A DNA stretch of 64,000 nucleotides from Bacillota bacterium (GTDB lineage: Bacteria; Bacillota; Clostridia; Christensenellales; UBA1242): assembly GCA_009787915.1 (NCBI GenBank), contig WQSK01000001.1, positions 7,119 through 71,118 on the forward strand. Reading direction: 5' to 3'. The translations under genes were made by a program, and so were the position numbers. Positions 4,098 through 63,666 of the stretch are shown piece by piece; position 1 is the stretch's first letter, and each line of letters begins with the position of its first letter. Below the pieces are notes generated by a model. That model saw only the letters and a list, made by a program, of their open reading frames with translations, was not told the origin of the DNA and ran no database searches.

Positions 4098-4613
4098 ATG
4101 GAACTTATCGACACATATGACAAAGACGGTAACCATGCTGGCGTAATGGACAAGTTTGTTGCAATTGAAACTTTGCAACGGTTTAAGTGTGTTCATGTTT
4201 GGATTATAAACAGTAAGGGCGAGGTCTTGGTTCAAAAGCGTTCTGCAAACAAACGCAGTCATCCGAACGAGTGGGACGTTTCGGTCGGTGGGTTTATTCT
4301 TGCGGGTGAAGAAATTTTGGACGCGTGCGTGCGCGAAGTTTTCGAGGAGTTAGGTATCAACTTGACAAAAGAGAAGTTCGTGTTTCAATGTGCAATACAA
4401 AAGACAAAGGGTTTGATACCTTATTTGTTTCTTGTAAAGCAAGACATTGAAATCAAAGACATGAAATTACAAACCTGTGAAGTTTCGCAAGTAAAATGGC
4501 TTTCATTTAAAGATTTTGAAAAGTTTTTTGCCTCGAGAGAGTTTGTACCCCACAGCGAATATTATAGAAGCACAGTGCTTGGGTTTATCAAAAGAGGTGT
4601 TCAAGGGTTATGA
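4098..4613 (+). CDS. Nudix hydrolase
   Basis: Nudix box GGFILAGEEILDACVREVFEELGI. Same subfamily look as the 1662-2213 product. Confidence 0.8.
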   Translation: MELIDTYDKDGNHAGVMDKFVAIETLQRFKCVHVWIINSKGEVLVQKRSANKRSHPNEWDVSVGGFILAGEEILDACVREVFEELGINLTKEKFVFQCAIQKTKGLIPYLFLVKQDIEIKDMKLQTCEVSQVKWLSFKDFEKFFASREFVPHSEYYRSTVLGFIKRGVQGL

Positions 4614-6571
4614 GTTCGTTTAAAAAACTTTGGGGAAACGACATCTTTAATTTCTCGATGCTGAGGGCACTTAACCATGTCATTATGATGTTCGCCACGG
4701 TCTTTTTGAATTTGTACTTTTACGACCTAAGTGAAGGCTCGATGACACCCATCGCTATTTATAACTTGGTGTTTTTCACGGCATGCGGTCTTGTTATATT
4801 CCTTTGCCGAAACATAAACAAGGGCGGAAACAAGATGCTTCTTATTCGCGTATCGTTGGTTTTATACGCGGTGTGCTTTGTTGTGATTGCAATATTGCGC
4901 GAGGACGTCATTAACTTTGTCTGGTTGGTGGGTATATTGTTGGGCGGACAGCACGGGATGTATTTCTCGGCCAAGAACCCGCTGGAGGGCGAGATTATCT
5001 CTAACAAAATCCGTGTGCGCTATATGGGAATCATGGTTGTGGTCAATAGTGTCTTAAGTATTTTGTTTCCGCTTGTGTTTGGCGGGATTTTGACGTACCA
5101 GGCGTATTACCATGTTTCAATAGTTGTGGCTGTGTTTGTTTTGATAGCGTTATTTTTTGCGTGCCGAATCAAAAGCCCAAGTACAAACAGAGGCGAAAAA
5201 ACAAAGATGCGGGAATACCTGCGTGAACTTAAAAAACCCGAGAACAAACCCATACGGATTTTTGGCTGGGCGTACTTTTTCGGAGGCATGACCGTGTTGG
5301 GTGGTGCAATGGCATCAATATTAACTATTATAAAGTTCCAGGTCTTTGACACAAATATGGCACTAGGTGCCGCAACATCGGCGTTCACAGTCTTTTCTAT
5401 TATAAGTGGCTTCGTCATGAGCAAATTTATAAACGAACGAAACAGAAACCGATTCTTGCTATCCGTGTTTTTCTTGCAAGCAATCGCCGTGTTGATTGTG
5501 GCTTTTTACACAAACACAGGAACGATAATTGCGTTCAGTATCGTCAACGCGTTTTGCCTCGGTATGATTACGGGGCTTGTATCTGCCCAGTTTTTTAATT
5601 ATATAAATCACAAAAGCATCAAAGAAAAATATAAAATAGAATATATCGTGGTTATAGAGATGTTCATAGCCGCGGGTCGTATCTTGGGCTTTACCATTAT
5701 GGTGTTGGGCGGGGTTTTCTTTTCTTATATTTTGCTGCAAATAATCTTGGTGGTTATGGTTGTTTCATTATTTATGTTTGTTGTATTATCCTGTATTGTG
5801 AAAAACAAAATGTGCGACCAAAGAAAAGACGTCTTGGTTTTTGACTGTGACGGGACAATTACCCATGTTAAGGATAACAAGATTTCGGACTTTACATATG
5901 ACGCAATCAAAAAGGCTCAAGAAAAATACATCATCGTTTTTGCAACGGGGAGGAATCTGACCTATTTCAAACAAATGTTTGGGGACAAACCCGTAATAGG
6001 GGACTATGCGGTACTGAACGACGGGGCAAGTGTTTATGATTTGAACGGGGAAAAACTTTTGTTTGCCGACTATATCAAAAAGGACAAGTTAAAGTTGCTC
6101 CTTGAAAACCTAAACCACTGCACGCGTATTACGACCCATGATATAGAACATAAACATATTGAAACCAAAGACCTTGATATTAACGAGGTTCTAAAAGGTG
6201 ATGTTTTGCGTCTTGACCTGACACCAACAGGGCAAGACAAACCCGATGTTATTGTATCAGAACTAAACGCCCTCGGTACAAAGTTAAACATCCACAAAAT
6301 GAAAGACAGTATCCGCCCAAATTCTTGGGTAGTGGTGACTTGCGGTTTGGTGAACAAAGGAAACGGGCTTAAACGGCTGGCGAAAGTTAAAGGCTTTGAT
6401 TTGAAACGTGCAACGGCATTTGGCGATAGTTATAATGATATATCTTTCTTTGAAATATGTGGGAAAACAGTTGCCGTGGAAAACGCCGAGGCGGAACTTC
6501 TCGCTGTCGCTGGAAAAACAATCGGGACAAACGAGGATGACGCTGTGGCTAAATACATTATTGCGTTATAG
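4610..6571 (+). CDS. fusion protein: multi-pass (MFS-like) membrane domain plus C-terminal Cof-type HAD phosphatase
   Basis: About 400 aa of repeated hydrophobic helices, then HAD motif I VFDCDGTIT and motif IV FGDSYNDISFF with a Cof-like cap. Confidence 0.75.
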   Translation: MSSFKKLWGNDIFNFSMLRALNHVIMMFATVFLNLYFYDLSEGSMTPIAIYNLVFFTACGLVIFLCRNINKGGNKMLLIRVSLVLYAVCFVVIAILREDVINFVWLVGILLGGQHGMYFSAKNPLEGEIISNKIRVRYMGIMVVVNSVLSILFPLVFGGILTYQAYYHVSIVVAVFVLIALFFACRIKSPSTNRGEKTKMREYLRELKKPENKPIRIFGWAYFFGGMTVLGGAMASILTIIKFQVFDTNMALGAATSAFTVFSIISGFVMSKFINERNRNRFLLSVFFLQAIAVLIVAFYTNTGTIIAFSIVNAFCLGMITGLVSAQFFNYINHKSIKEKYKIEYIVVIEMFIAAGRILGFTIMVLGGVFFSYILLQIILVVMVVSLFMFVVLSCIVKNKMCDQRKDVLVFDCDGTITHVKDNKISDFTYDAIKKAQEKYIIVFATGRNLTYFKQMFGDKPVIGDYAVLNDGASVYDLNGEKLLFADYIKKDKLKLLLENLNHCTRITTHDIEHKHIETKDLDINEVLKGDVLRLDLTPTGQDKPDVIVSELNALGTKLNIHKMKDSIRPNSWVVVTCGLVNKGNGLKRLAKVKGFDLKRATAFGDSYNDISFFEICGKTVAVENAEAELLAVAGKTIGTNEDDAVAKYIIAL

Positions 6572-56032: not shown

Positions 56033-56045
56033 CGGAGGGTTACCG
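56033..56045 (+). repeat. fragment copy of the tRNA-Ser 5' end (13 nt)
   Basis: CGGAGGGTTACCG equals 56173-56185. Confidence 0.8.
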
Positions 56046-56088: not shown

Positions 56089-56113
56089 CGGAGGGTTACC
56101 GAAGTGGTCATAA
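56089..56113 (+). repeat. fragment copy of the tRNA-Ser 5' end (25 nt, acceptor plus D-arm)
   Basis: CGGAGGGTTACCGAAGTGGTCATAA equals 56173-56197. Confidence 0.85.
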
Positions 56114-56173: not shown

Positions 56174-56262
56174 GGAGGGTTACCGAAGTGGTCATAACGG
56201 GGCGGTCTTGAAAACCGTTAGGGTGCAAGCCCACAAGAGTTCGAATCTCTTACCCTCCTCCA
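56174..56262 (+). tRNA. tRNA-Ser (anticodon UGA), class II with long variable arm
   Basis: Hand-folded: acceptor GGAGGGT/ACCCTCC, anticodon loop CTTGAAA, variable arm GGGTGCAAGCCC, T-arm AGAGTTCGAATCTCT, discriminator T, encoded CCA. TGgTATAAT promoter at 56149-57. Confidence 0.9.
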
Positions 56263-57776
56263 AGCGATTTAATATGCGGACTGGAAAGTTCGTTGTAATC
56301 AATGCCTTGTTCGTGCAAGGTAATTTTAAGGTCGTTTAGGGTTATCGGATCGACTTTGTCAAAGTTATAAAACATAAAAATTCCGTGTTCCAAAACCCAA
56401 ATAGAATTAACAAATCCATGTATGATTTTCTTTTGGTACGTAGGGTCGTTTATATCTCCGCCAATAAATTGTTGCAGTCGTTTTCTATAATCTTCCGCAG
56501 TTCTCGGCAAGTTAGATATATGTCGGAGTTTTGACAACTCGATGTTTAAGTCACTTTTTTGTATCTCGAGGTCTTTGCTACGTTGGTTGATTTTTGAAAC
56601 TATTGTTTGACCTTGTGCCACAAGTAAAGTGTCAATCAATTTTTCAATTTCCCGGTCGATGACAGATATGCGTTTTTCGTACTCTTTAACCCGTTGCGTG
56701 GTTATATTATTGGCGTGATAATCAGAGAGCAATTTACTTGCACGTTCTATGTTCTTTGCGTTTGATATGAACTCGATAATGTCTTGGACAACCGACTTTT
56801 CTAACTCGGACTTGTTCTCGTTTGATTTATGACAATCCTTGAACTTGTGTCTGTTACTGCAAACATAGTATCTAAAATTTGTTTCGCCATTTCGGACTTT
56901 ACCGCAAACGCCATTCATAGTAGCACCACAATGTCCGCAGTATGCCTTGCCAGTCAAAAGATACTCGACCTTTGCTTTACCTTGGGCGGACAAACGCTTT
57001 TTCGTTGCACACATCTTTTGTACTTCTTCAAAAAGTTTATCGTCGATAAGCCTGGGGTATATGTTGGTGTATTCAACACCATGACGTTCAAGTATTCCGA
57101 TGTAGTTTTTGTTTTTCAAGTTGTGGTAAATGTTTGTGACACTCCAAGGCTCGCCACTTCTATTGCGTATACCTTTTTCGTTAAGTTCTTTGCAAATCTC
57201 TTTCTTAGGTTTTCCGCTTGCATAGTCTGAAAAAATCTTTTTCATAATTTCGGCTTTGGGTTTATCAATTTGAATTTTCTTGTCAACAACCTTGTACCCA
57301 TACGTCACAATTCCGCCAGTCCAGTTCCCCTTGTCAAGATTGATTTGATTGCCACGTTTAATTTTCTGAGAGAGTTCCACTGAATAGAACTGGTTGTAAC
57401 CCTCTATGACACTTTCTAACAAAATGCCCTCTGGCGAGTCCGCTATGGCTTCCGTTGCCGACACGACCTTAACGCCTGCTTCTTTAAGTTGTCGTTTATA
57501 AACCACACTTTCATATTTGTCCCTAGAAAATCGGTCAAGTTTATACACCAAAATCACGTCAAATATTTCTTGTTTGCTGTCCGAAATCATGCGTTGAAAT
57601 TCAGGACGTTTGTCATTAGTCCCCGTCATAGCACGATCAACATACTCGCCTACAATGGCGAGATTTTGTCGTTGGGCAAATTCCCCACAGACTTTAACCT
57701 GTCCTTCAATCGACTGTTCCGTTTGGTTGTTGGAACTGTACCTTGCGTAGATTACTGCTTTGTTCATTTTACACAC
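56250..57776 (-). CDS. large serine recombinase
   Basis: N-terminal resolvase domain AVIYARYSSNNQ...SIEGQ, recombinase domain, Zn-ribbon (CGHCG...C..RYYVC), coiled coil. The last codons overlap the tRNA-Ser 3' end. Confidence 0.9.
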   Translation of the reverse strand: MCKMNKAVIYARYSSNNQTEQSIEGQVKVCGEFAQRQNLAIVGEYVDRAMTGTNDKRPEFQRMISDSKQEIFDVILVYKLDRFSRDKYESVVYKRQLKEAGVKVVSATEAIADSPEGILLESVIEGYNQFYSVELSQKIKRGNQINLDKGNWTGGIVTYGYKVVDKKIQIDKPKAEIMKKIFSDYASGKPKKEICKELNEKGIRNRSGEPWSVTNIYHNLKNKNYIGILERHGVEYTNIYPRLIDDKLFEEVQKMCATKKRLSAQGKAKVEYLLTGKAYCGHCGATMNGVCGKVRNGETNFRYYVCSNRHKFKDCHKSNENKSELEKSVVQDIIEFISNAKNIERASKLLSDYHANNITTQRVKEYEKRISVIDREIEKLIDTLLVAQGQTIVSKINQRSKDLEIQKSDLNIELSKLRHISNLPRTAEDYRKRLQQFIGGDINDPTYQKKIIHGFVNSIWVLEHGIFMFYNFDKVDPITLNDLKITLHEQGIDYNELSSPHIKSLGGG

Positions 57777-57810
57777 TCCTTTTTGCCCTTAACAAGCAAC
57801 CGATCGTAGG

Positions 57811-57941
57811 GCTGCCTTTTGGGCTTAGCCGACAAACCGCACAACCGCCCAAGGCAGTCAAGGTGGAAGTTCCAAGGGAAAACTACCTTGACGGTCTTGG
57901 GCGTGTTGTGCTACCAACATCGGCTATGCCCAAAAGGGAGC
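57811..57941. other. 130-nt extended imperfect hairpin, single-strand-origin-like
   Basis: Nested helices: 57815-24/57928-37, 57826-32/57920-26, 57839-45/57905-11, 57846-53/57896-903 and 57857-64/57885-92. Confidence 0.6.
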
Positions 57942-58402
57942 ACACCAACTGTACCACAAGTGATGGGAAAAGTTAGGTTTTTGCTGTGTAAAGTATTGGT
58001 TTTGTGTAGGTAAAGTCATGGGACAAATTAAAAACGATTTTTTAAAATTCTAGTAGTCAAAATGGGTACTTCTTGCGTTCTCCATGTAGGGAAAGTTTTT
58101 TTGATTTACCCCCTCACTTTTGACCTTTGTCGTGACCTACTGTTAAGGCAAAAGAAAAACAAATGACAGCAAATCTTTAAGAGGTGGCTGTGCAAAAAAC
58201 TATTCGAGTACAAATCGGCAGTTATCGGCTTCGTGACAAAGTTACGAGGTCGCTTTTGCCATGCGTGCCGATTTATGCAGAAGTCACAACAAAGGTAGCA
58301 GTAAGTCTTGCGGAACGAGTGGCAAGCCTTCTAGTCGATTGCTATCAAATGAGCAAAGCGAATGAGCCGAGAGTGTGCAAACACACTTGCGACCGCACAG
58401 TG

Positions 58403-58488
58403 GTGGCGAGAGACGAGGCTTGCCCGTCTCCGCCACGTGCGCCGCAAGGGGTTGCTAGCGAAGCGGTTGTCATACTTGATATTGGCAA
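58403..58488 (+). other. GC-rich 12-bp hairpin plus small hairpin presenting ACTTGATATT in its loop; candidate nick/double-strand origin
   Basis: Stem 58403-15 / 58425-36. TGTCA (58469-73) / TGGCA (58484-88) flank the loop TACTTGATAT. The element lies 34 nt upstream of the rep ATG. Confidence 0.45.
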
Positions 58489-58521
58489 CACTTAAAAATT
58501 CTAAAAGAGGTGGATAATCAC

Positions 58522-59448
58522 ATGGACAAGTTCATGTCAAAACGTGTTGAGAGGGTTTTGAAACCTAACGCACATTTATTATCTAAACAAAAGAGAGAGC
58601 AAGTAAATACTCGGATAAATCGGTTTAAGTTCTTTACTGAAATCATTTACTATCACGAACCTTTTGATATCCTGACTGGTAAGAAAGATTATAACTGGGT
58701 AGATACTGAAACTGGCAAAATCATCTCAGCGAGTAAACGAAAAGAGATAACAGACCAAGAGCAAATTGACGAATACGCAAGTCGTGGCGAGATTTTGGAA
58801 ATCGACAACGGATTTGACCGCAGTCAATACGAGAGTTGTCGCAGAGCAAAAGACAATTTTTATGGATATGCTTTGTGTAATGACTGGGTTTATTTTTGTA
58901 CTTTTACGATTGCGAAAAGCGAACATGACCATGATGACAAAGCAACAAAATACTACTGGCAAATGTTCCGCCAAAAGTTACAAAAGAGATTTCCAACTGT
59001 TAAGATCCTTGCAGTTCCTGAACGCCACGCCAAAGGCAACATTCATTTTCATGCTTTACTTGGGGATTGTGACTTAGAAAATATTTTAGTCGTGGCAATC
59101 AACCCACACACAAGCGAACCTGTATTACAAAGTGGTCGACAAGTTTATAATTTGCCACTCTGGGACAAAGGTTTTTCAACTGTTGTTAAAATCGACCAAG
59201 AGAGTATTGAAAACCAGTTGAAAGCAATCAACTACATTATTGGATATGTGACCAAGCAAGAGAACAGCATTGGGCTTAATCAGAAACGCTATTATCGAAC
59301 TAGAAACTTGGATTTCAAAAACACCGAGATAAAGTTTACTGACAAAGCGAAATATGAGAGTCTGCTATTAAGTACGTTTGATATAAACGCAAAACTCGTC
59401 AAACACAAAGAGAACGACAGAATGATTGTTTTTAGGGTGTACAATTAA
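58522..59448 (+). CDS. HUH rolling-circle replication initiator (two-Tyr, phiX gpA / gokushovirus VP4-like)
   Basis: Motif 1 FCTFTIA, motif 2 HFHALLG, motif 3 [11 protein letters not shown] 58522 follows an AGAGG RBS. Confidence 0.75.
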
Positions 59449-59473: not shown

Positions 59474-60451
59474 ATGAAAATCGTTTCATTTTTTGCAGGT
59501 GCTGGGGGTCTTGACCTTGGCTTTGAAAAAGCGGGGTTTCACACTGTTTGGGCGAATGAATACGATAAAACAATTTGGGCTACTTATGAAAAAAATTTTC
59601 CTAATTCTAAACTTGATAAACGAAGCATAACAGATGTATCTCCCAAAGAAGTTCCCGATTGTGACGGAATCATTGGCGGACCGCCATGTCAAAGTTGGAG
59701 TGAAGCCGGTGCGGGGCGTGGCATTGATGACGATAGGGGTAAATTGTTTTTAGACTATATTAGGATATTAAAAGATAAAAAGCCAAAGTTTTTCTTGTGT
59801 GAAAATGTGGGCGGTATGCTTTTAGATAAACACAAAGTTAATTTCGATAAGTTTATTTCCGAGTTTGAAAGTGCAGGATATAATGTTTCTTGGCAACTTG
59901 TTGACGCTAATGATTTTGATGTCCCTCAAAATCGCAAGCGTGTCATCATCGTGGGATATAGAAAAGATTTAAATAAAAAGTTTGAATTTCCACCTGTGCA
60001 AGAATATAAACCAAATTTGAAAGACGCTATATGGGATTTGCGACAAGCCCAACCTGCTAAACAGCATAATAAGTCATGGGGGCTTGAATTACCAATTCCG
60101 AATCACGAATATATGAATGGCGGATTCTCTACAATCTTTATGTCACGTAATCGTGTACGTTCTTGGGACGAACCTTCTTTCACTATCCAAGCAGGTGGCA
60201 GACACGCCCCTATCCACCCACAAGCCCCTAAAATGCTTTTTGTCGAACAAAACAAAAGAATATTCGTTCCCGGTAAAGAAGATGATTATAGGCGGTTGTC
60301 CGTGCGTGAGTGTGCAAGAATACAAACATTCCCCGATAGTTTTATTTTTATTTATAATGACATTGCCGACGGTTACAAAATGGTGGGTAATGCCGTGCCA
60401 GTAAACCTAGCGTATGCGATTGCAAAAAAGATAAAGGAAGATTTGAAATGA
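59474..60451 (+). CDS. DNA (cytosine-5) methyltransferase, M.HaeIII-like
   Basis: Motif [46 protein letters not shown]. The TRD segment [33 protein letters not shown] resembles M.HaeIII as I recall it. Confidence 0.9.
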
Positions 60452-61404
60452 GAACAACAATAAACTCAACAATTAAAGGCAAGGCATATGAATACGCTTG
60501 CGTGTTGGCGATAAAGGAACTTGTCACGCCTATTCGTCCAGTTGAAATCATAGCGAATTCAAGTCTTGAAATAGCAGAACAAAGATATAACGAAATCACG
60601 CAAGACGAGCAAGCCGAAATGTTGAGATCCGCAAAAGCGGGCATGAGCAAAATTATTGAAATGGAACCCAAAGTAACCGACGACGGAGATGATAAATTGA
60701 CCATATCGCTACAACCCGATAATTTGGCGAAAGGTGGGGATATTCGTGATGTCCTGATTATCCGACGTTCAATCAAGTGGGAAATCGGAGTTTCGGTTAA
60801 ACATAACCACGAGGCGTTAAAACACTCACGGCTTTCGATGAGTATTGATTTTGGCAAACTTTGGCTTGGTGCAAATTGTTCCAAAGATTACTTCACTGAA
60901 ATAAAACCTTTGTTTGACATGTTGTCAAAAGAAAAGTCTTGCGGGAAATTGTGGTCGCAGTTGCCAAGCAAGGAGAATGCCGTATATGTTCCGTTATTAA
61001 CTGCTTTCAAAAATGAGTTTATTAAACTTAATTCTCAAAACGAAGACGTAACCGAAAATCTAATTCGCTATCTGCTTGGAAGCAACGGGAAAGACTATTA
61101 CAAACTTATCCACCGCAATAATAACATTGCTACGATTATTCCATTTAACTTGTTCGGCACATTAAACACAAGCGGTAAAAACAAGCCAACTATAACTATC
61201 CCAAATATCGAATTACCTACGCGAATTATTGAGTTTGATTTCAAAGAAAAATCACAAACCACGTTGATATTAACAATGAATAATGGTTGGTCAATTTCTT
61301 TCCGAATTCACAATGCAAGTTCCAAAGTTGAAACAAGTTTGAAATTCGATATTAATTTACAAAGCAAGCCCGAAAAAATGTTTTATATAGATGTTAAGTG
61401 GTAA
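60448..61404 (+). CDS. putative cognate type II restriction endonuclease
   Basis: ATGA overlap with the MTase stop. 318 aa. No independent motif recognised, so the call rests on position and size. Confidence 0.5.
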
Positions 61405-61485: not shown

Positions 61486-62553
61486 TTGAGAAAGAAAAAT
61501 CCTAGATACAAAGAATATTTGAGACGCAAAAGTAGGAAGAAAGGAGTGCGTAAAGCTGAACGCCGTTACCATAAACCATGCACTAGTAGGAAGAAAGAAG
61601 CTATCAAAATAAAAAAATATAAAAAAACTGATAGATGCCACTTACAAAAGATTAAAGAAAAGAGTTTTAGTCTTCCAGAGGATTTTAGCTTGCTTAGTAA
61701 TCCAGAAGACGTGAAGAGCACTTTTCACTGTATTCGTGAATTCATGATTGCGAATAGAGGTCTGCGCATGAAGATAAAAATCGATGCTAGAAATATTAAA
61801 AATGCAACAGCAGATGCAGTAATGTACCTACTCGCGATGCTTAGAGACAAGCGGAATCAAAATGAAGGTATTAGGTGGTCTGGAGACCTCCCGCTAGTAG
61901 ATGGAGCAAGACGTGTATTTATGGAGTCAGGATTTCTTAGCTACGTTAATAGCTTAAATAATATTATCAAAAACGCCGATAAGGTTGCGATTAAAAATGG
62001 AAAAGAGGTTAAATCAGATCTTGCAAAAGCCATATGCGATTGGGTTATAGACAAAATTGGGTGTACTAGAAATGAAACGAAATTTTTGCAGAAGACTATT
62101 GTAGAGCTTATGGAAAACACGAAAGCACATGCTTACACTGATGACACAGATCTTTTAAAAGATTGGTATTTGTTTGTCGAAAAGCGCAGCTCGAAATTTG
62201 AGTTTGTATTTCTTGACACAGGTGGCAGTATACCTTCGACCATTAAAAAGAGATTTGGAGAAAAGGTTTTTGGTGCTAGGCAAGTAGATTTGATTGAGTC
62301 TGCTTTGGAGGGCGGAGAATTTCGTTCAACTACAAAACTTAAGCATCGAAACAAAGGCTTGCCAAATATTAAACAAAAAATTGAATATGGACATATTAAA
62401 AGTATGGTGATATTATCTAATAGGGCGAAGTGTGAACTGTATAAAGAAAATAATAATCTAGTTATAAAAAAAGATGAGCAAAAAAATAAATTATATGGTA
62501 CGCTATACTACTGGGAAGTAGACACTGTGAAATTGAAAGGAGAAGCATGTTAA
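61486..62553 (+). CDS. GHKL (anti-sigma-kinase-like) ATPase with an extremely basic ~60-aa N-terminus
   Basis: GGAGG RBS and TTG start. N-box IVELMENTKAHAY, G1-like FLDTGGSIP, G2-like NKGLPNI. The first 60 aa are about half Lys/Arg. Confidence 0.6.
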   Translation: MRKKNPRYKEYLRRKSRKKGVRKAERRYHKPCTSRKKEAIKIKKYKKTDRCHLQKIKEKSFSLPEDFSLLSNPEDVKSTFHCIREFMIANRGLRMKIKIDARNIKNATADAVMYLLAMLRDKRNQNEGIRWSGDLPLVDGARRVFMESGFLSYVNSLNNIIKNADKVAIKNGKEVKSDLAKAICDWVIDKIGCTRNETKFLQKTIVELMENTKAHAYTDDTDLLKDWYLFVEKRSSKFEFVFLDTGGSIPSTIKKRFGEKVFGARQVDLIESALEGGEFRSTTKLKHRNKGLPNIKQKIEYGHIKSMVILSNRAKCELYKENNNLVIKKDEQKNKLYGTLYYWEVDTVKLKGEAC

Positions 62554-62885
62554 TGGAAAAGATTAAGATAAATGTCGCACATGACTTTACTGAGATACCG
62601 GGTCCACGCTATAAAAAGGATGGTAAATTTTCTGGCGAGGAATTTAGGGATAAACACCTAATCCCTAACTACGATAAGGCAAAGGCTAATGGTGTAAAGA
62701 TAATGGTCAATCTTGACGGTGGGTATGGCTATCCAGTTTCTTTTCTCGAGGAATCTTTTGGTGGACTCGCAAGGATTTATAGAGACGATAATGTTGTGGG
62801 TATGTTTGATTTTGTTTCAAAAGAGGAGCCATCTTTGATAGATGATATCAGAAAATATATATTGGATGCGAATAAGAGGGTTTGA
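62547..62885 (+). CDS. STAS-like DUF4325 protein
   Basis: KIMVNLDGGYGYPVSFLEESFGGL fits the DUF4325 pattern. The start overlaps the upstream stop (ATG 62547, or TAATG at 62553). Confidence 0.6.
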   Translation: MLMEKIKINVAHDFTEIPGPRYKKDGKFSGEEFRDKHLIPNYDKAKANGVKIMVNLDGGYGYPVSFLEESFGGLARIYRDDNVVGMFDFVSKEEPSLIDDIRKYILDANKRV

Positions 62886-62886
62886 A

Positions 62887-63480
62887 ATGTCAACAAGAAT
62901 AATACAGAGGATATTTTTAATAATAGGTATATTTATCATTATTTCTCTAATTGTTTGGCTAGTACTTGCTTCGAGACTTGACATAAACAAAGAGTCTTTT
63001 TATCATATTTCTTTGTCGGAAGGTATACCAATTATTCTAATTGCCGTGGCAACGATGTTTCTGTCTTTTTGGTTTTCTAATAAAATCTCCGATGAGAAAA
63101 AGCAAAAAGAAACTATATATGAGTATCTTAAAAAGATTATAACCATGTTTGAGAAGATAGATTCTATTGTCGAGGCTTATGATTTAACATCGGCTGCTAA
63201 AATAAGAAATTTCACATGTTGCATGCAAGTTGTTAGTGCGTTTAGAAAGTTAAGCAATACAGTAGATACACTCAAAAAAATGGATGCGGAGCGCTTTTGT
63301 AAAGATGATTTATGTGCGTTAGAGTCACATATTAAGGAATTTAATGACTACATCACTGGGTTCAAGTTTGAAAATGATGTATCGGCCAAGTCGAGGAACG
63401 CTTTGATAATTAAAGTCGGAAAATTTACAAGTGACGCTGGTAATATAATTTTCATATTCGGAGTAAACCTATTTAGATAA
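62887..63480 (+). CDS. 2-TM membrane protein with ~110-aa cytoplasmic helical domain
   Basis: ATG lies 1 nt after the upstream stop. TM1 IFLIIGIFIIISLIVWLVLA, TM2 IPIILIAVATMFLSFWF. Confidence 0.6.
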   Translation: MSTRIIQRIFLIIGIFIIISLIVWLVLASRLDINKESFYHISLSEGIPIILIAVATMFLSFWFSNKISDEKKQKETIYEYLKKIITMFEKIDSIVEAYDLTSAAKIRNFTCCMQVVSAFRKLSNTVDTLKKMDAERFCKDDLCALESHIKEFNDYITGFKFENDVSAKSRNALIIKVGKFTSDAGNIIFIFGVNLFR

Positions 63481-63562: not shown

Positions 63563-63606
63563 GGAGAGGACAAGGTTCTCGCAGAAGCGAGGTTCTTACC
63601 CTCCTC
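63563..63606. repeat. covarying hairpin family, copy B (at the right junction of the element)
   Basis: GGAGAGGA CAAGGTT CTCGC AGAA GCGAG GTTCTTA CCCTCCTCC. The 3' strand is the duplicated tRNA-Ser 3' end. Confidence 0.7.
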
Positions 63607-63666
63607 CAAAATATGCTCGAAATTTGTGCCGAAAGTTCAGCAGAACCCAACCACGATGATTGATAT

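Follow-up and report, generated by a model that had tools for sequence, protein, structure and literature searches.

Both the CTTG/ATA nick core and the rolling-circle mechanism that it serves are textbook matters, and the core is a general one, common to phage phiX174 and the pC194-type plasmids. The element family considered here is little studied. It is represented by a 7.35-kb island within a 64,000-nucleotide stretch of DNA (the window) from a clostridial Bacillota bacterium (assembly GCA_009787915.1, contig WQSK01000001.1, positions 7,119 to 71,118 of the forward strand). The island encodes Rep, an HUH endonuclease, and directly upstream of rep lies the decamer ACTTGATATT. We propose, with a confidence of roughly 80%, that this decamer is the site cleaved by Rep: a double-strand origin (dso) or a nic site.

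Known origins and their initiators

In the phiX174 record (NC_001422) the origin reads CAACTTGATATTAATAACACTATAGACCAC. Because its rep_origin feature is annotated at A4306, the nick lies between G4305 and A4306. The origin sits inside gene A and has no flanking inverted repeat, and the replicon is a virus; the replicon in the window is an integrated island. The initiator, gpA, has 513 amino acids against 308 for the window Rep, and a different amino-terminal region. The resemblances lie in a homologous catalytic core and in the tyrosine motif, Y-x3-Y-V-x-K.

For the Rep_1 (pC194-type) plasmids, CTTGATA is named as the conserved dso nick site (PMC10378824). The pC194 origin sequence is TTCTTATCTTGATAATAAGGG (PMC7072734), and there a short inverted repeat, CTTAT/ATAAG, flanks the nick core (PMC7072734, PMC10378824). 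The window locus shares with pC194 and pUB110 a CTTGATA core upstream of rep, on the rep strand, and may share the expected layout of a dso together with a structured lagging-strand origin (sso). The enzymes differ: pC194 RepA uses Glu210 and Tyr214 (PMC5703833), whereas the window Rep family keeps two tyrosines and is not Rep_1. The window element is, moreover, integrative.

Initiators of inoviruses and plectroviruses resemble the window Rep in belonging to Pfam family PF23343, and they supply its best annotated phage matches. Identity to inovirus Reps is 26-35% over the core, and the window element differs from these phages in having no morphogenesis genes. The classical Ff nick sequence differs from the CTTG/ATA site.

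A fourth comparison is with the streptococcal integrative and mobilizable elements (IMEs) of the Rel_PHA00330, Rel_PF01719 and MobT types. As described in excerpts of two reports (PMC5357655, PMC5704250), direct repeats bound these small islands, which are often inserted in the 3′ ends of tRNA genes and have a tyrosine or serine integrase, a Rep of rolling-circle replication type, and cargo such as restriction-modification genes. The window element fits this description, but according to the same excerpts most of these IMEs carry a TcpA coupling protein, which the window element lacks. The excerpts give no nick site for those IMEs (PMC5357655, PMC5704250), and a literature search found none for the PF23343 Rep family.

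A decamer shared with phiX174

Three features are central to the argument:

58475..58481, plus strand: nick core CTTGATA (phiX174 record; Rep_1/pC194 literature; conservation in the family)
58473..58499, plus strand: conserved 27-nt block TACTTGATATTGGCAACACTTAAAAAT, comprising the nick core and its 3′ flank (BLAST of the spacer)
58522..59448, plus strand: Rep, 308-residue two-tyrosine HUH endonuclease (PF23343; phrog_3419; alignment; hhalign to gpA; AlphaFold2)

The decamer occupies positions 58474-58483 of the plus strand, exactly as given in a preliminary description of this DNA, and has no second copy on either strand of the window. Dinucleotide-preserving shuffles yield an expectation of 0.23 copies per window, counting both strands, and of about 1e-3 for one strand of the 745-bp spacer ahead of rep; the latter agrees with the earlier estimate of 1 in 1000 for a 10-mer in this region. 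That description had also cited the phiX174 origin core, with ten consecutive matching nucleotides. NC_001422 bears this out: positions 4301-4310 are identical to the decamer and span the annotated nick.

Similarity to phiX174 extends a little further. Over the 30-bp phiX174 origin, 19 positions are the same in the window: the decamer; AACACT, at equal spacing; and three scattered bases. Outside the decamer the count is 9 of 20 (P about 0.05). The phiX174 recognition sequence CAACTTG^ATA is matched at 8 of 10 positions (ACTTGATA is identical, with differences at the two 5′ bases). Not conserved in the window are the AT-rich spacer and the right-hand binding part of the phiX174 origin, TTAATAACACTATAGACCAC; matches within that region are two T residues of the common decamer, AACACT, and the three scattered bases. 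By analogy with G4305/A4306 of phiX174, the predicted cut falls between G58478 and A58479.

The site accompanies Rep

Loci encoding Rep relatives, 69 in all, were gathered from genomes, viral contigs and metagenomes, and their Reps were grouped into 24 clusters, joined at an identity of at least 70%. (Individual loci are cited below by number, as L065.) Most of the 69 have CTTGATA on the Rep strand, a few tens of nucleotides upstream of the Rep open reading frame (ORF). These include Saccharibacteria loci with Rep only 24-27% identical to that of the window. Counting exact CTTGATA on the Rep strand between −150 and +20 of the ORF, 13 of 24 clusters have the core, against an expectation of 0.019 per locus. 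In most other clusters this position is taken by TACTCGATA, TACTTGACA or TACTTGATT. The preliminary description had pointed to homologous Rep loci as the place to look for a conserved copy; they carry CTTGATA, or a one-base variant, in a TACTTGAYA context. Loci with the site come from Firmicutes and Saccharibacteria metagenome-assembled genomes (MAGs), tiny staphylococcal plasmids, and an inovirus.

Conservation is sharply bounded. BLAST of the whole spacer against all loci found a sole block, positions 58473-58499. It is identical at 27 of 27 positions in L065, L066 and L067, which have a Rep 70% identical to that of the window and an otherwise unalignable spacer; the block is presumably the region recognized by Rep. 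The footprint is asymmetric, comprising the core and its 3′ flank, and phiX174 is similar in having the greater part of its 30-bp origin 3′ of the nick; the two also share CTTGATA-N6-ACACT at equal spacing. The window has one copy of the family pattern, TACTTGAYA-N6-ACAC, where 0.01 would be expected.

One Rep cluster comprises 27 loci (L008, L011-L016 and L044-L064), drawn from metagenome contigs and, in many cases, from Saccharibacteria MAGs. Its origin is almost invariant (…GTTGTGNCCCTACTTGATATAGGGACACAACTTGCATAC…), and is preceded by a perfect hairpin, ACTTTTGACGC-AAG-CGTCAAAAGT. Separately, a search of viral contigs for TACTTGATAWTGGCAACAC returned one exact match (L077), which lies inside a 3397-residue ORF and was judged to be chance.

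The same Rep type and site occur together in autonomous replicons. In cryptic plasmids of staphylococci and Macrococcus, 1.4-2.3 kb in size and annotated with one ORF each, tblastn identified distant homologues of Rep. Three staphylococcal examples, pAvY-B1, pAvY-B2 and p908_2260 (L078-L080), carry GTTGGTCGT-cTACTTGACAt-ACGACCAAC, a 9-bp hairpin displaying TACTTGACA, beside a Rep homologue with 25-29% identity. They differ from the window element in being autonomous, in having one annotated ORF and no recombinase, in their CTTGACA (not CTTGATA) core, and in the position of the site, which is at the 5′ end of the ORF as annotated, or inside it. In phages, tblastn matches were mostly to "bajarodino" and "Dulem" viruses. 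The two bajarodino records examined are Inoviridae with Zot genes, and bajarodino virus 1 has a hairpin, GTGTCCTT-taCTTGACAat-AAGGACAC, 50 nt upstream of the initiator gene. As in the window, the nick site (GTGTCCTT-TACTTGACAAT-AAGGACAC) is held in a hairpin, with further hairpins ahead of it. These plasmids and the inovirus have no other initiator and must use this type of Rep. Replicons of this kind therefore have the same site, and the pair of motif and Rep is a working origin module elsewhere.

(In pAvY-B1, pAvY-B2 and p908_2260 the lone ORF is annotated as "hypothetical protein", although it encodes the PF23343-like Rep homologue, and the TACTTGACA hairpin is at or inside its annotated 5′ end; the replication module of these plasmids thus appears to be unannotated.)

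Rep, a two-tyrosine initiator

The rep ATG is preceded by a ribosome-binding site, AAGAGGTGG, at 58505-58513. Rep matches PF23343 (REP_ORF2-G2P) with 49.1 bits against a gathering threshold of 27.8, and phrog_3419, "rolling circle DNA replication initiation". Among 5.8 billion proteins 27 homologues were found; all match PF23343, and almost none is named. In the family alignment HUH motifs I-III appear in order: FCTFT, HFHAL and NYIIGYVTK. Residues T127, T129, H175 and H177 are invariant, and Y238 and Y242 are conserved in at least 90% of homologues. The YIIGY motif reported in the preliminary description is thus present, with both tyrosines nearly invariant.

How close is Rep to gpA? Phage phiX174 gpA itself scores above the PF23343 cut-off (33.5 bits against 27.8), as well as on its own family, PF05840. 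Profile comparison by hhalign of the Rep family with gpA covers motifs I-III (probability 85%, E = 6e-6) and places Y238 and Y242 on Y343 and Y347. YIIGY is thereby aligned with gpA YVAKY: two catalytic tyrosines at Y-x3-Y spacing. Rep has no match to PF05840 (Phage_GPA) at E <= 0.01, and its homology to gpA is confined to the catalytic core; Rep is therefore a gpA-like two-tyrosine HUH initiator outside PF05840. Nor does it match PF01446 (Rep_1), its motif being Tyr-x3-Tyr and not Glu-x3-Tyr.

The AlphaFold2 model (predicted local distance difference test score, pLDDT, 88) matches ORF2/G2P-domain proteins and Microvirus "replication initiator" proteins in BFVD, with E down to 2.5e-15. Foldseek against the PDB gave weak HUH matches only (Helitron 7lcc, adeno-associated virus Rep, SIRV1 ORF119; E >= 0.025). 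A PDB sequence search with Rep had no match, and neither did NCBIfam or PADLOC. The nearest annotated relatives are inovirus "replication initiator" proteins of the ORF2/G2P type; Microviridae initiators are further relatives by fold. The comparison with gpA made in the preliminary description holds for the two-tyrosine core, which is homologous to that of gpA; the closest kinship is with inovirus initiators.

Hairpins at and ahead of the probable nick site

Three secondary structures are predicted in the spacer:

58466..58489, plus strand: nick-site hairpin (fold; compensatory arms in relatives; covariation score)
58394..58441, with core 58403-58436, no strand assigned: GC-rich hairpin B (fold; equivalents in relatives)
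57811..57941, no strand assigned: hairpin A, a 130-nt nested imperfect hairpin beside the recombinase start (fold; inverted repeats I1/I2)

The best stem around the nick site has 7 bp, including one G.T pair, formed by GTTGTCA (58466-58472) and TGGCAAC (58483-58489). It encloses a 10-nt loop, TACTTGATAT (58473-58482). The flanking TGTCA and TGGCA noted previously are real arms, but their coordinates were one base off, being 58468-58472 and 58483-58487. Stems in relatives (the window's and the Saccharibacteria clades) have 6-17 bp, and that of the window is weakest. The arms change in compensatory fashion between clades: GTGTTGCC/GGCAACAC, GTGTCCCC/GGGGACAC, TGTCCCTA/TAGGGACA and TGTCCTGTA/TACAGGATA. 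Scored on a core-centred alignment, covariation is 0.271 against 0.145 ± 0.023 in shuffles, none of 500 reaching 0.271, and exceeds that of every slid register. A test in one fixed register pairs just 64% of cells, because loop length varies between clades and the window register is shifted by one base. The right arm is kept as sequence, and the left arm only as its complement. The sequence of the right arm presumably is conserved for recognition by Rep.

Hairpin display of the core is a trait of particular clades, weakest in the window. The preliminary description was right to place the nick core in a hairpin loop here, but such display is absent from phiX174 and from some relatives.

Hairpin B corresponds to a strong GC hairpin already reported at 58403-36. 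It is real and somewhat larger, with 14 bp and one bulge, reaching from 58394 to 58441 (z = −2.7 for the 111-nt segment). The position of such a GC hairpin, 10-60 nt ahead of the nick core, is constant in the family: equivalents are present in L065, L027, L028, L032, L034, L035, L036, L001, L003 and L008, often with a GGTGG motif. Its role would be in Rep binding or minus-strand priming. In most relatives, the most stable structure of the upstream 1.2 kb adjoins the nick site.

Hairpin A, between the recombinase start and the origin, is the more stable (−51.5 kcal/mol, z = −9.6). It is kept in L065 (about 4985-5140) and in L034, with covarying basal stems and a common apical GCAGTCAAGGTGGA. 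It may be a candidate sso, a packaging-type signal, or a leader of the recombinase gene. At the gathering threshold Rfam found only two tRNAs in the window, outside the spacer, and hairpins A and B match no known RNA families. (The hexamer TAGCGA at 58455-58460, which is CS-6-like, was considered as evidence for an ssoA and set aside: a lone hexamer is too short.)

An island at a tRNA gene

The remaining features delimit the element and describe its contents:

56174..56262, plus strand: tRNA-Ser(TGA), the integration target; the left end of the element provides the 3′ end of the gene (ARAGORN; Rfam tRNA, 54 bits)
56248..56263, plus strand: left direct repeat TCTTACCCTCCTCCAA (attL core), in the tRNA 3′ end (exact 16-nt repeat; k-mer search)
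56250..57776, minus strand: large serine recombinase, probable ATG at 57767 (Pfam Resolvase, Recombinase and Zn_ribbon_recom)
59474-60451, plus strand: C5 cytosine methyltransferase, cargo (PF00145; PADLOC MTase_II)
60448-61404, plus strand: HaeIII-family restriction endonuclease, cargo (PF09556; PADLOC REase_II)
61486..63480, plus strand: cargo proteins of 355 residues (phrog_3364), 112 residues (DUF4325, STAS-like) and 212 residues (Pfam, PHROG and PADLOC scans)
63594..63609, plus strand: right direct repeat TCTTACCCTCCTCCAA (attR core), an exact repeat that bounds the 7.35-kb element

The gene order is therefore recombinase (minus strand), 745-bp spacer, Rep, a HaeIII-type restriction-modification pair, and three genes without assigned function. 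A site-specific recombinase, together with perfect 16-bp direct repeats at the 3′ end of tRNA-Ser, identifies an integrative element. Its recombinase is most similar to CcrB and CcrA, with an NCBIfam Ccr score below the cut-off, and the last four codons and stop codon of the gene fall within the left repeat. The same overlap of recombinase 3′ end and tRNA 3′ end, beside Rep, occurs in L065 (tRNA-Pro) and in the Saccharibacteria MAG L074 (tRNA-Arg); direct repeats of at least 11-12 nt were not found around these two loci. In another relative Rep is paired with a tyrosine integrase. Cargo in relatives is defence-like: an Mrr-like nuclease and a type I restriction-modification system. A Pfam scan of the ORFs of the 7.35-kb element found no TcpA/VirD4 coupling protein or other transfer gene. 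Rep and the origin would form the replication or processing module of this element, which the large serine recombinase would have inserted at the 3′ end of tRNA-Ser.

Several further observations concern the island. Two partial copies of the tRNA-Ser 5′ end, GGAGGGTTACCGAAGTGGTCATAA, lie upstream of the intact gene, at 56034-56045 (12 nt) and 56090-56113 (24 nt); these may be remnants of past integrations or rearrangements at the same tRNA. The ribosome-binding region of rep (58497-58513, AATTCTAAAAGAGGTGG) is duplicated 326 nt upstream, at 58171-58187 (AAATCTTTAAGAGGTGG). The duplicate precedes a 103-residue ORF (58184-58495) that extends across hairpin B and the nick site. This ORF is richer in G+C (about 0.5) than the neighbouring genes, was called as a gene in one assembly, and would encode a Cys/Arg-rich product; it lacks Pfam and PADLOC matches, relatives have nothing equivalent, and it is probably non-coding. 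L065 has in its stead, at 5496-5663, a 55-residue ORF of unrelated sequence with a good ribosome-binding site. Finally, the genes for the 355-residue protein (no Pfam match) and the DUF4325 protein, at 61486-62885, overlap stop to start and directly follow the restriction-modification pair. They could be a second defence module, although PADLOC has no match for the pair.

A proposed mechanism and its alternatives

Judged by sequence comparison, the site is very probably a rolling-circle nick site of the CTTG/ATA type, either a dso or an origin of transfer (oriT), at which the integrated 7-kb element is nicked. In the mechanism envisaged, the recombinase would excise the element as a supercoiled circle. 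Rep would then recognize the conserved block TACTTGATATTGGCAACAC, and negative supercoiling, Rep binding, or both would expose the core as the loop of the small hairpin. One tyrosine (Y238 or Y242) would cut CTTG^ATA, between G58478 and A58479, and stay linked to the 5′ A. From the 3′-OH of the G, the leading strand would be extended to the right, first through rep and the cargo, then across the att junction and the recombinase gene. The second tyrosine would cut the regenerated site, and the displaced plus strand would be sealed into a circle, as in the two-tyrosine flip-flop of phiX174. Hairpins B and A, just upstream and so displaced last, would prime the complementary strand. As an alternative use, the same nick could equally well feed a strand into a helper conjugation pore. 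The nick may serve maintenance replication, conjugative mobilization, or phage-type export of single-stranded DNA.

Certain observations weigh against this scheme. Taken alone, the nick-site stem of the window is marginal: −3.3 kcal/mol, z = −1.6, with 15 of 200 shuffles folding equally well. That it is the weakest is due to divergence of the left arm, GGTTGTCA, from the perfect GTGTTGCC of L026 and L065; the right arm is unchanged. The element may thus manage without the hairpin, or this copy may be in decay. Flanking hairpins are absent from the phiX174 origin and from Lachnospiraceae relatives of the CTTGACA type. Among Saccharibacteria copies one left-arm position varies (G/T/C/A), and the right arm does not compensate. 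Homology identified no sso, an Rfam search of 57700-58600 at E <= 1 being empty. The predicted attP junction, …GCGAGGT-TCTTACCCTCCTCCAA-GCGATTTAA…, had no match among viral contigs, so these provide no evidence of an excised circle. Two contigs, L071 and L072, are identical to the matching stretch of the window; the 7.7-kb L071 is not circular, its ends having no overlap, and it crosses attR and therefore represents the integrated form.

Of the alternatives, one retains the biochemistry and changes its purpose: the site would be chiefly an oriT, with Rep acting as a non-canonical relaxase for a co-resident conjugative element, the island being an IME and maintenance replication secondary. This is possible, but less likely than not. 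In excerpts of three reports (PMC5357655, PMC5704250, PMC5714925), streptococcal IMEs commonly pair an integrase with a proposed relaxase resembling rolling-circle initiators (Rep_trans, Rep_2, PHA00330, Viral_Rep), and the Rep_1 initiators of pC194 and pUB110 mediate mobilization by ICEBs1. The element fits in consisting only of integrase, direct repeats, Rep and cargo, and even distant relatives combine Rep with a recombinase of the serine or tyrosine type. Within its 7.35 kb, however, there is no coupling protein or transfer gene. Homologues of Rep also have to replicate DNA in two other settings: 1.4-kb plasmids in which no other gene is annotated, and inoviruses, which use them as initiators.

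It is unlikely that the module provides the plus-strand origin of a filamentous-phage satellite that integrates, or of a defective derivative of such a phage, with Rep making single-stranded circles for packaging by a helper inovirus. In that case hairpin A would be the packaging signal and hairpin B the minus-strand origin, as in the Ff intergenic region. The order of long hairpin, GC hairpin, nick hairpin and rep does resemble that region. The best annotated phage matches of Rep are to inoviruses (bajarodino, with Zot genes; 30-35% identity over the core), one bajarodino virus has equal hairpin geometry with GTGTCC/GGACAC arms, and Pfam places Rep in the ORF2/G2P family. At 7.35 kb, moreover, the element is within the 4.7-8.8 kb of these inoviruses. 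Yet Pfam and PHROG scans revealed no Zot, coat or other morphogenesis gene, and the cargo is typical of genomic islands.

Just as improbable is a genuine origin by descent that is inactive in the window copy, a decaying island with a mutated left hairpin arm. The change from GTGTTGCC to GGTTGTCA, leaving the weakest stem of the family, and the lack of any excised form in L071, L072 or the attP search favour decay. Set against these are the intact recombinase, Rep and restriction-modification ORFs, the perfect direct repeats, and a nick core and 3′ recognition block that are 100% conserved; besides, phiX174 and some relatives work or persist without the hairpin.

Very unlikely is a transcriptional signal for rep, whether a −35-like element or a palindromic operator to which a repressor, or Rep itself, binds. 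In its favour, the σ70 −35 hexamer is similar to TTGATA and TTGACA, and some 45 nt separate the site from the start codon of rep downstream. Rep_1 initiators, moreover, repress their own promoter by coating the dso (PMC5703833). A promoter is rejected because there is no −10 element at 16-18 nt, in the window or in relatives, and a promoter scan skips the site. The identical core is the experimentally defined phiX174 nick site and the conserved dso nick core of Rep_1 plasmids, and the motif accompanies two-tyrosine Rep homologues in replicons without any other replication gene. Autoregulation through the same site would be additional to cleavage.

A chance match of the decamer to the phiX174 origin, for which one might cite the many windows scanned at about 1e-3 for a single 10-mer in the spacer, is effectively refuted: the core recurs in 13 of 24 Rep clusters where 0.019 per locus would be expected, the 27-nt footprint is unique, and the catalytic core of Rep is homologous to that of gpA.

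Implications

Since the mechanism is textbook, the surprise for a specialist is modest. What is new is the assignment of an origin of the CTTG/ATA type to an uncharacterized Rep family in tRNA-integrating islands. New also is that the CTTG/ATA site and a gpA-like two-tyrosine core travel together across phiX174, small inoviruses, 1.4-kb staphylococcal plasmids, and tRNA islands of Firmicutes and Saccharibacteria.

For PF23343 members in integrated elements, the site is a concrete candidate for the origin or nic site. Found beside a PF23343 gene, the pattern TACTTGAYA-N6-ACAC offers a practical guide for annotating origins and for setting the limits of such islands. The 1.7-kb module of hairpins, origin and rep is a candidate minimal replicon, or cassette for production of single-stranded DNA, for poorly tractable gut Firmicutes.

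A more speculative, and unlikely, proposal is that the locus is an Ff-like origin region (packaging-type hairpin A, minus-origin B, plus-origin nick hairpin and G2P-like Rep) of unnamed "integrative satellites" that target tRNA genes and are borne by serine recombinases. If true, widespread satellites would export defence cargo (restriction-modification, Mrr-like and type I restriction-modification systems) as single-stranded circles, via a helper filamentous phage or a conjugation pore. Such a class would span Firmicutes and the ultra-small Saccharibacteria, and one ancestral CTTG/ATA site would link the origins of microviruses, inoviruses, pC194-type plasmids, and islands.

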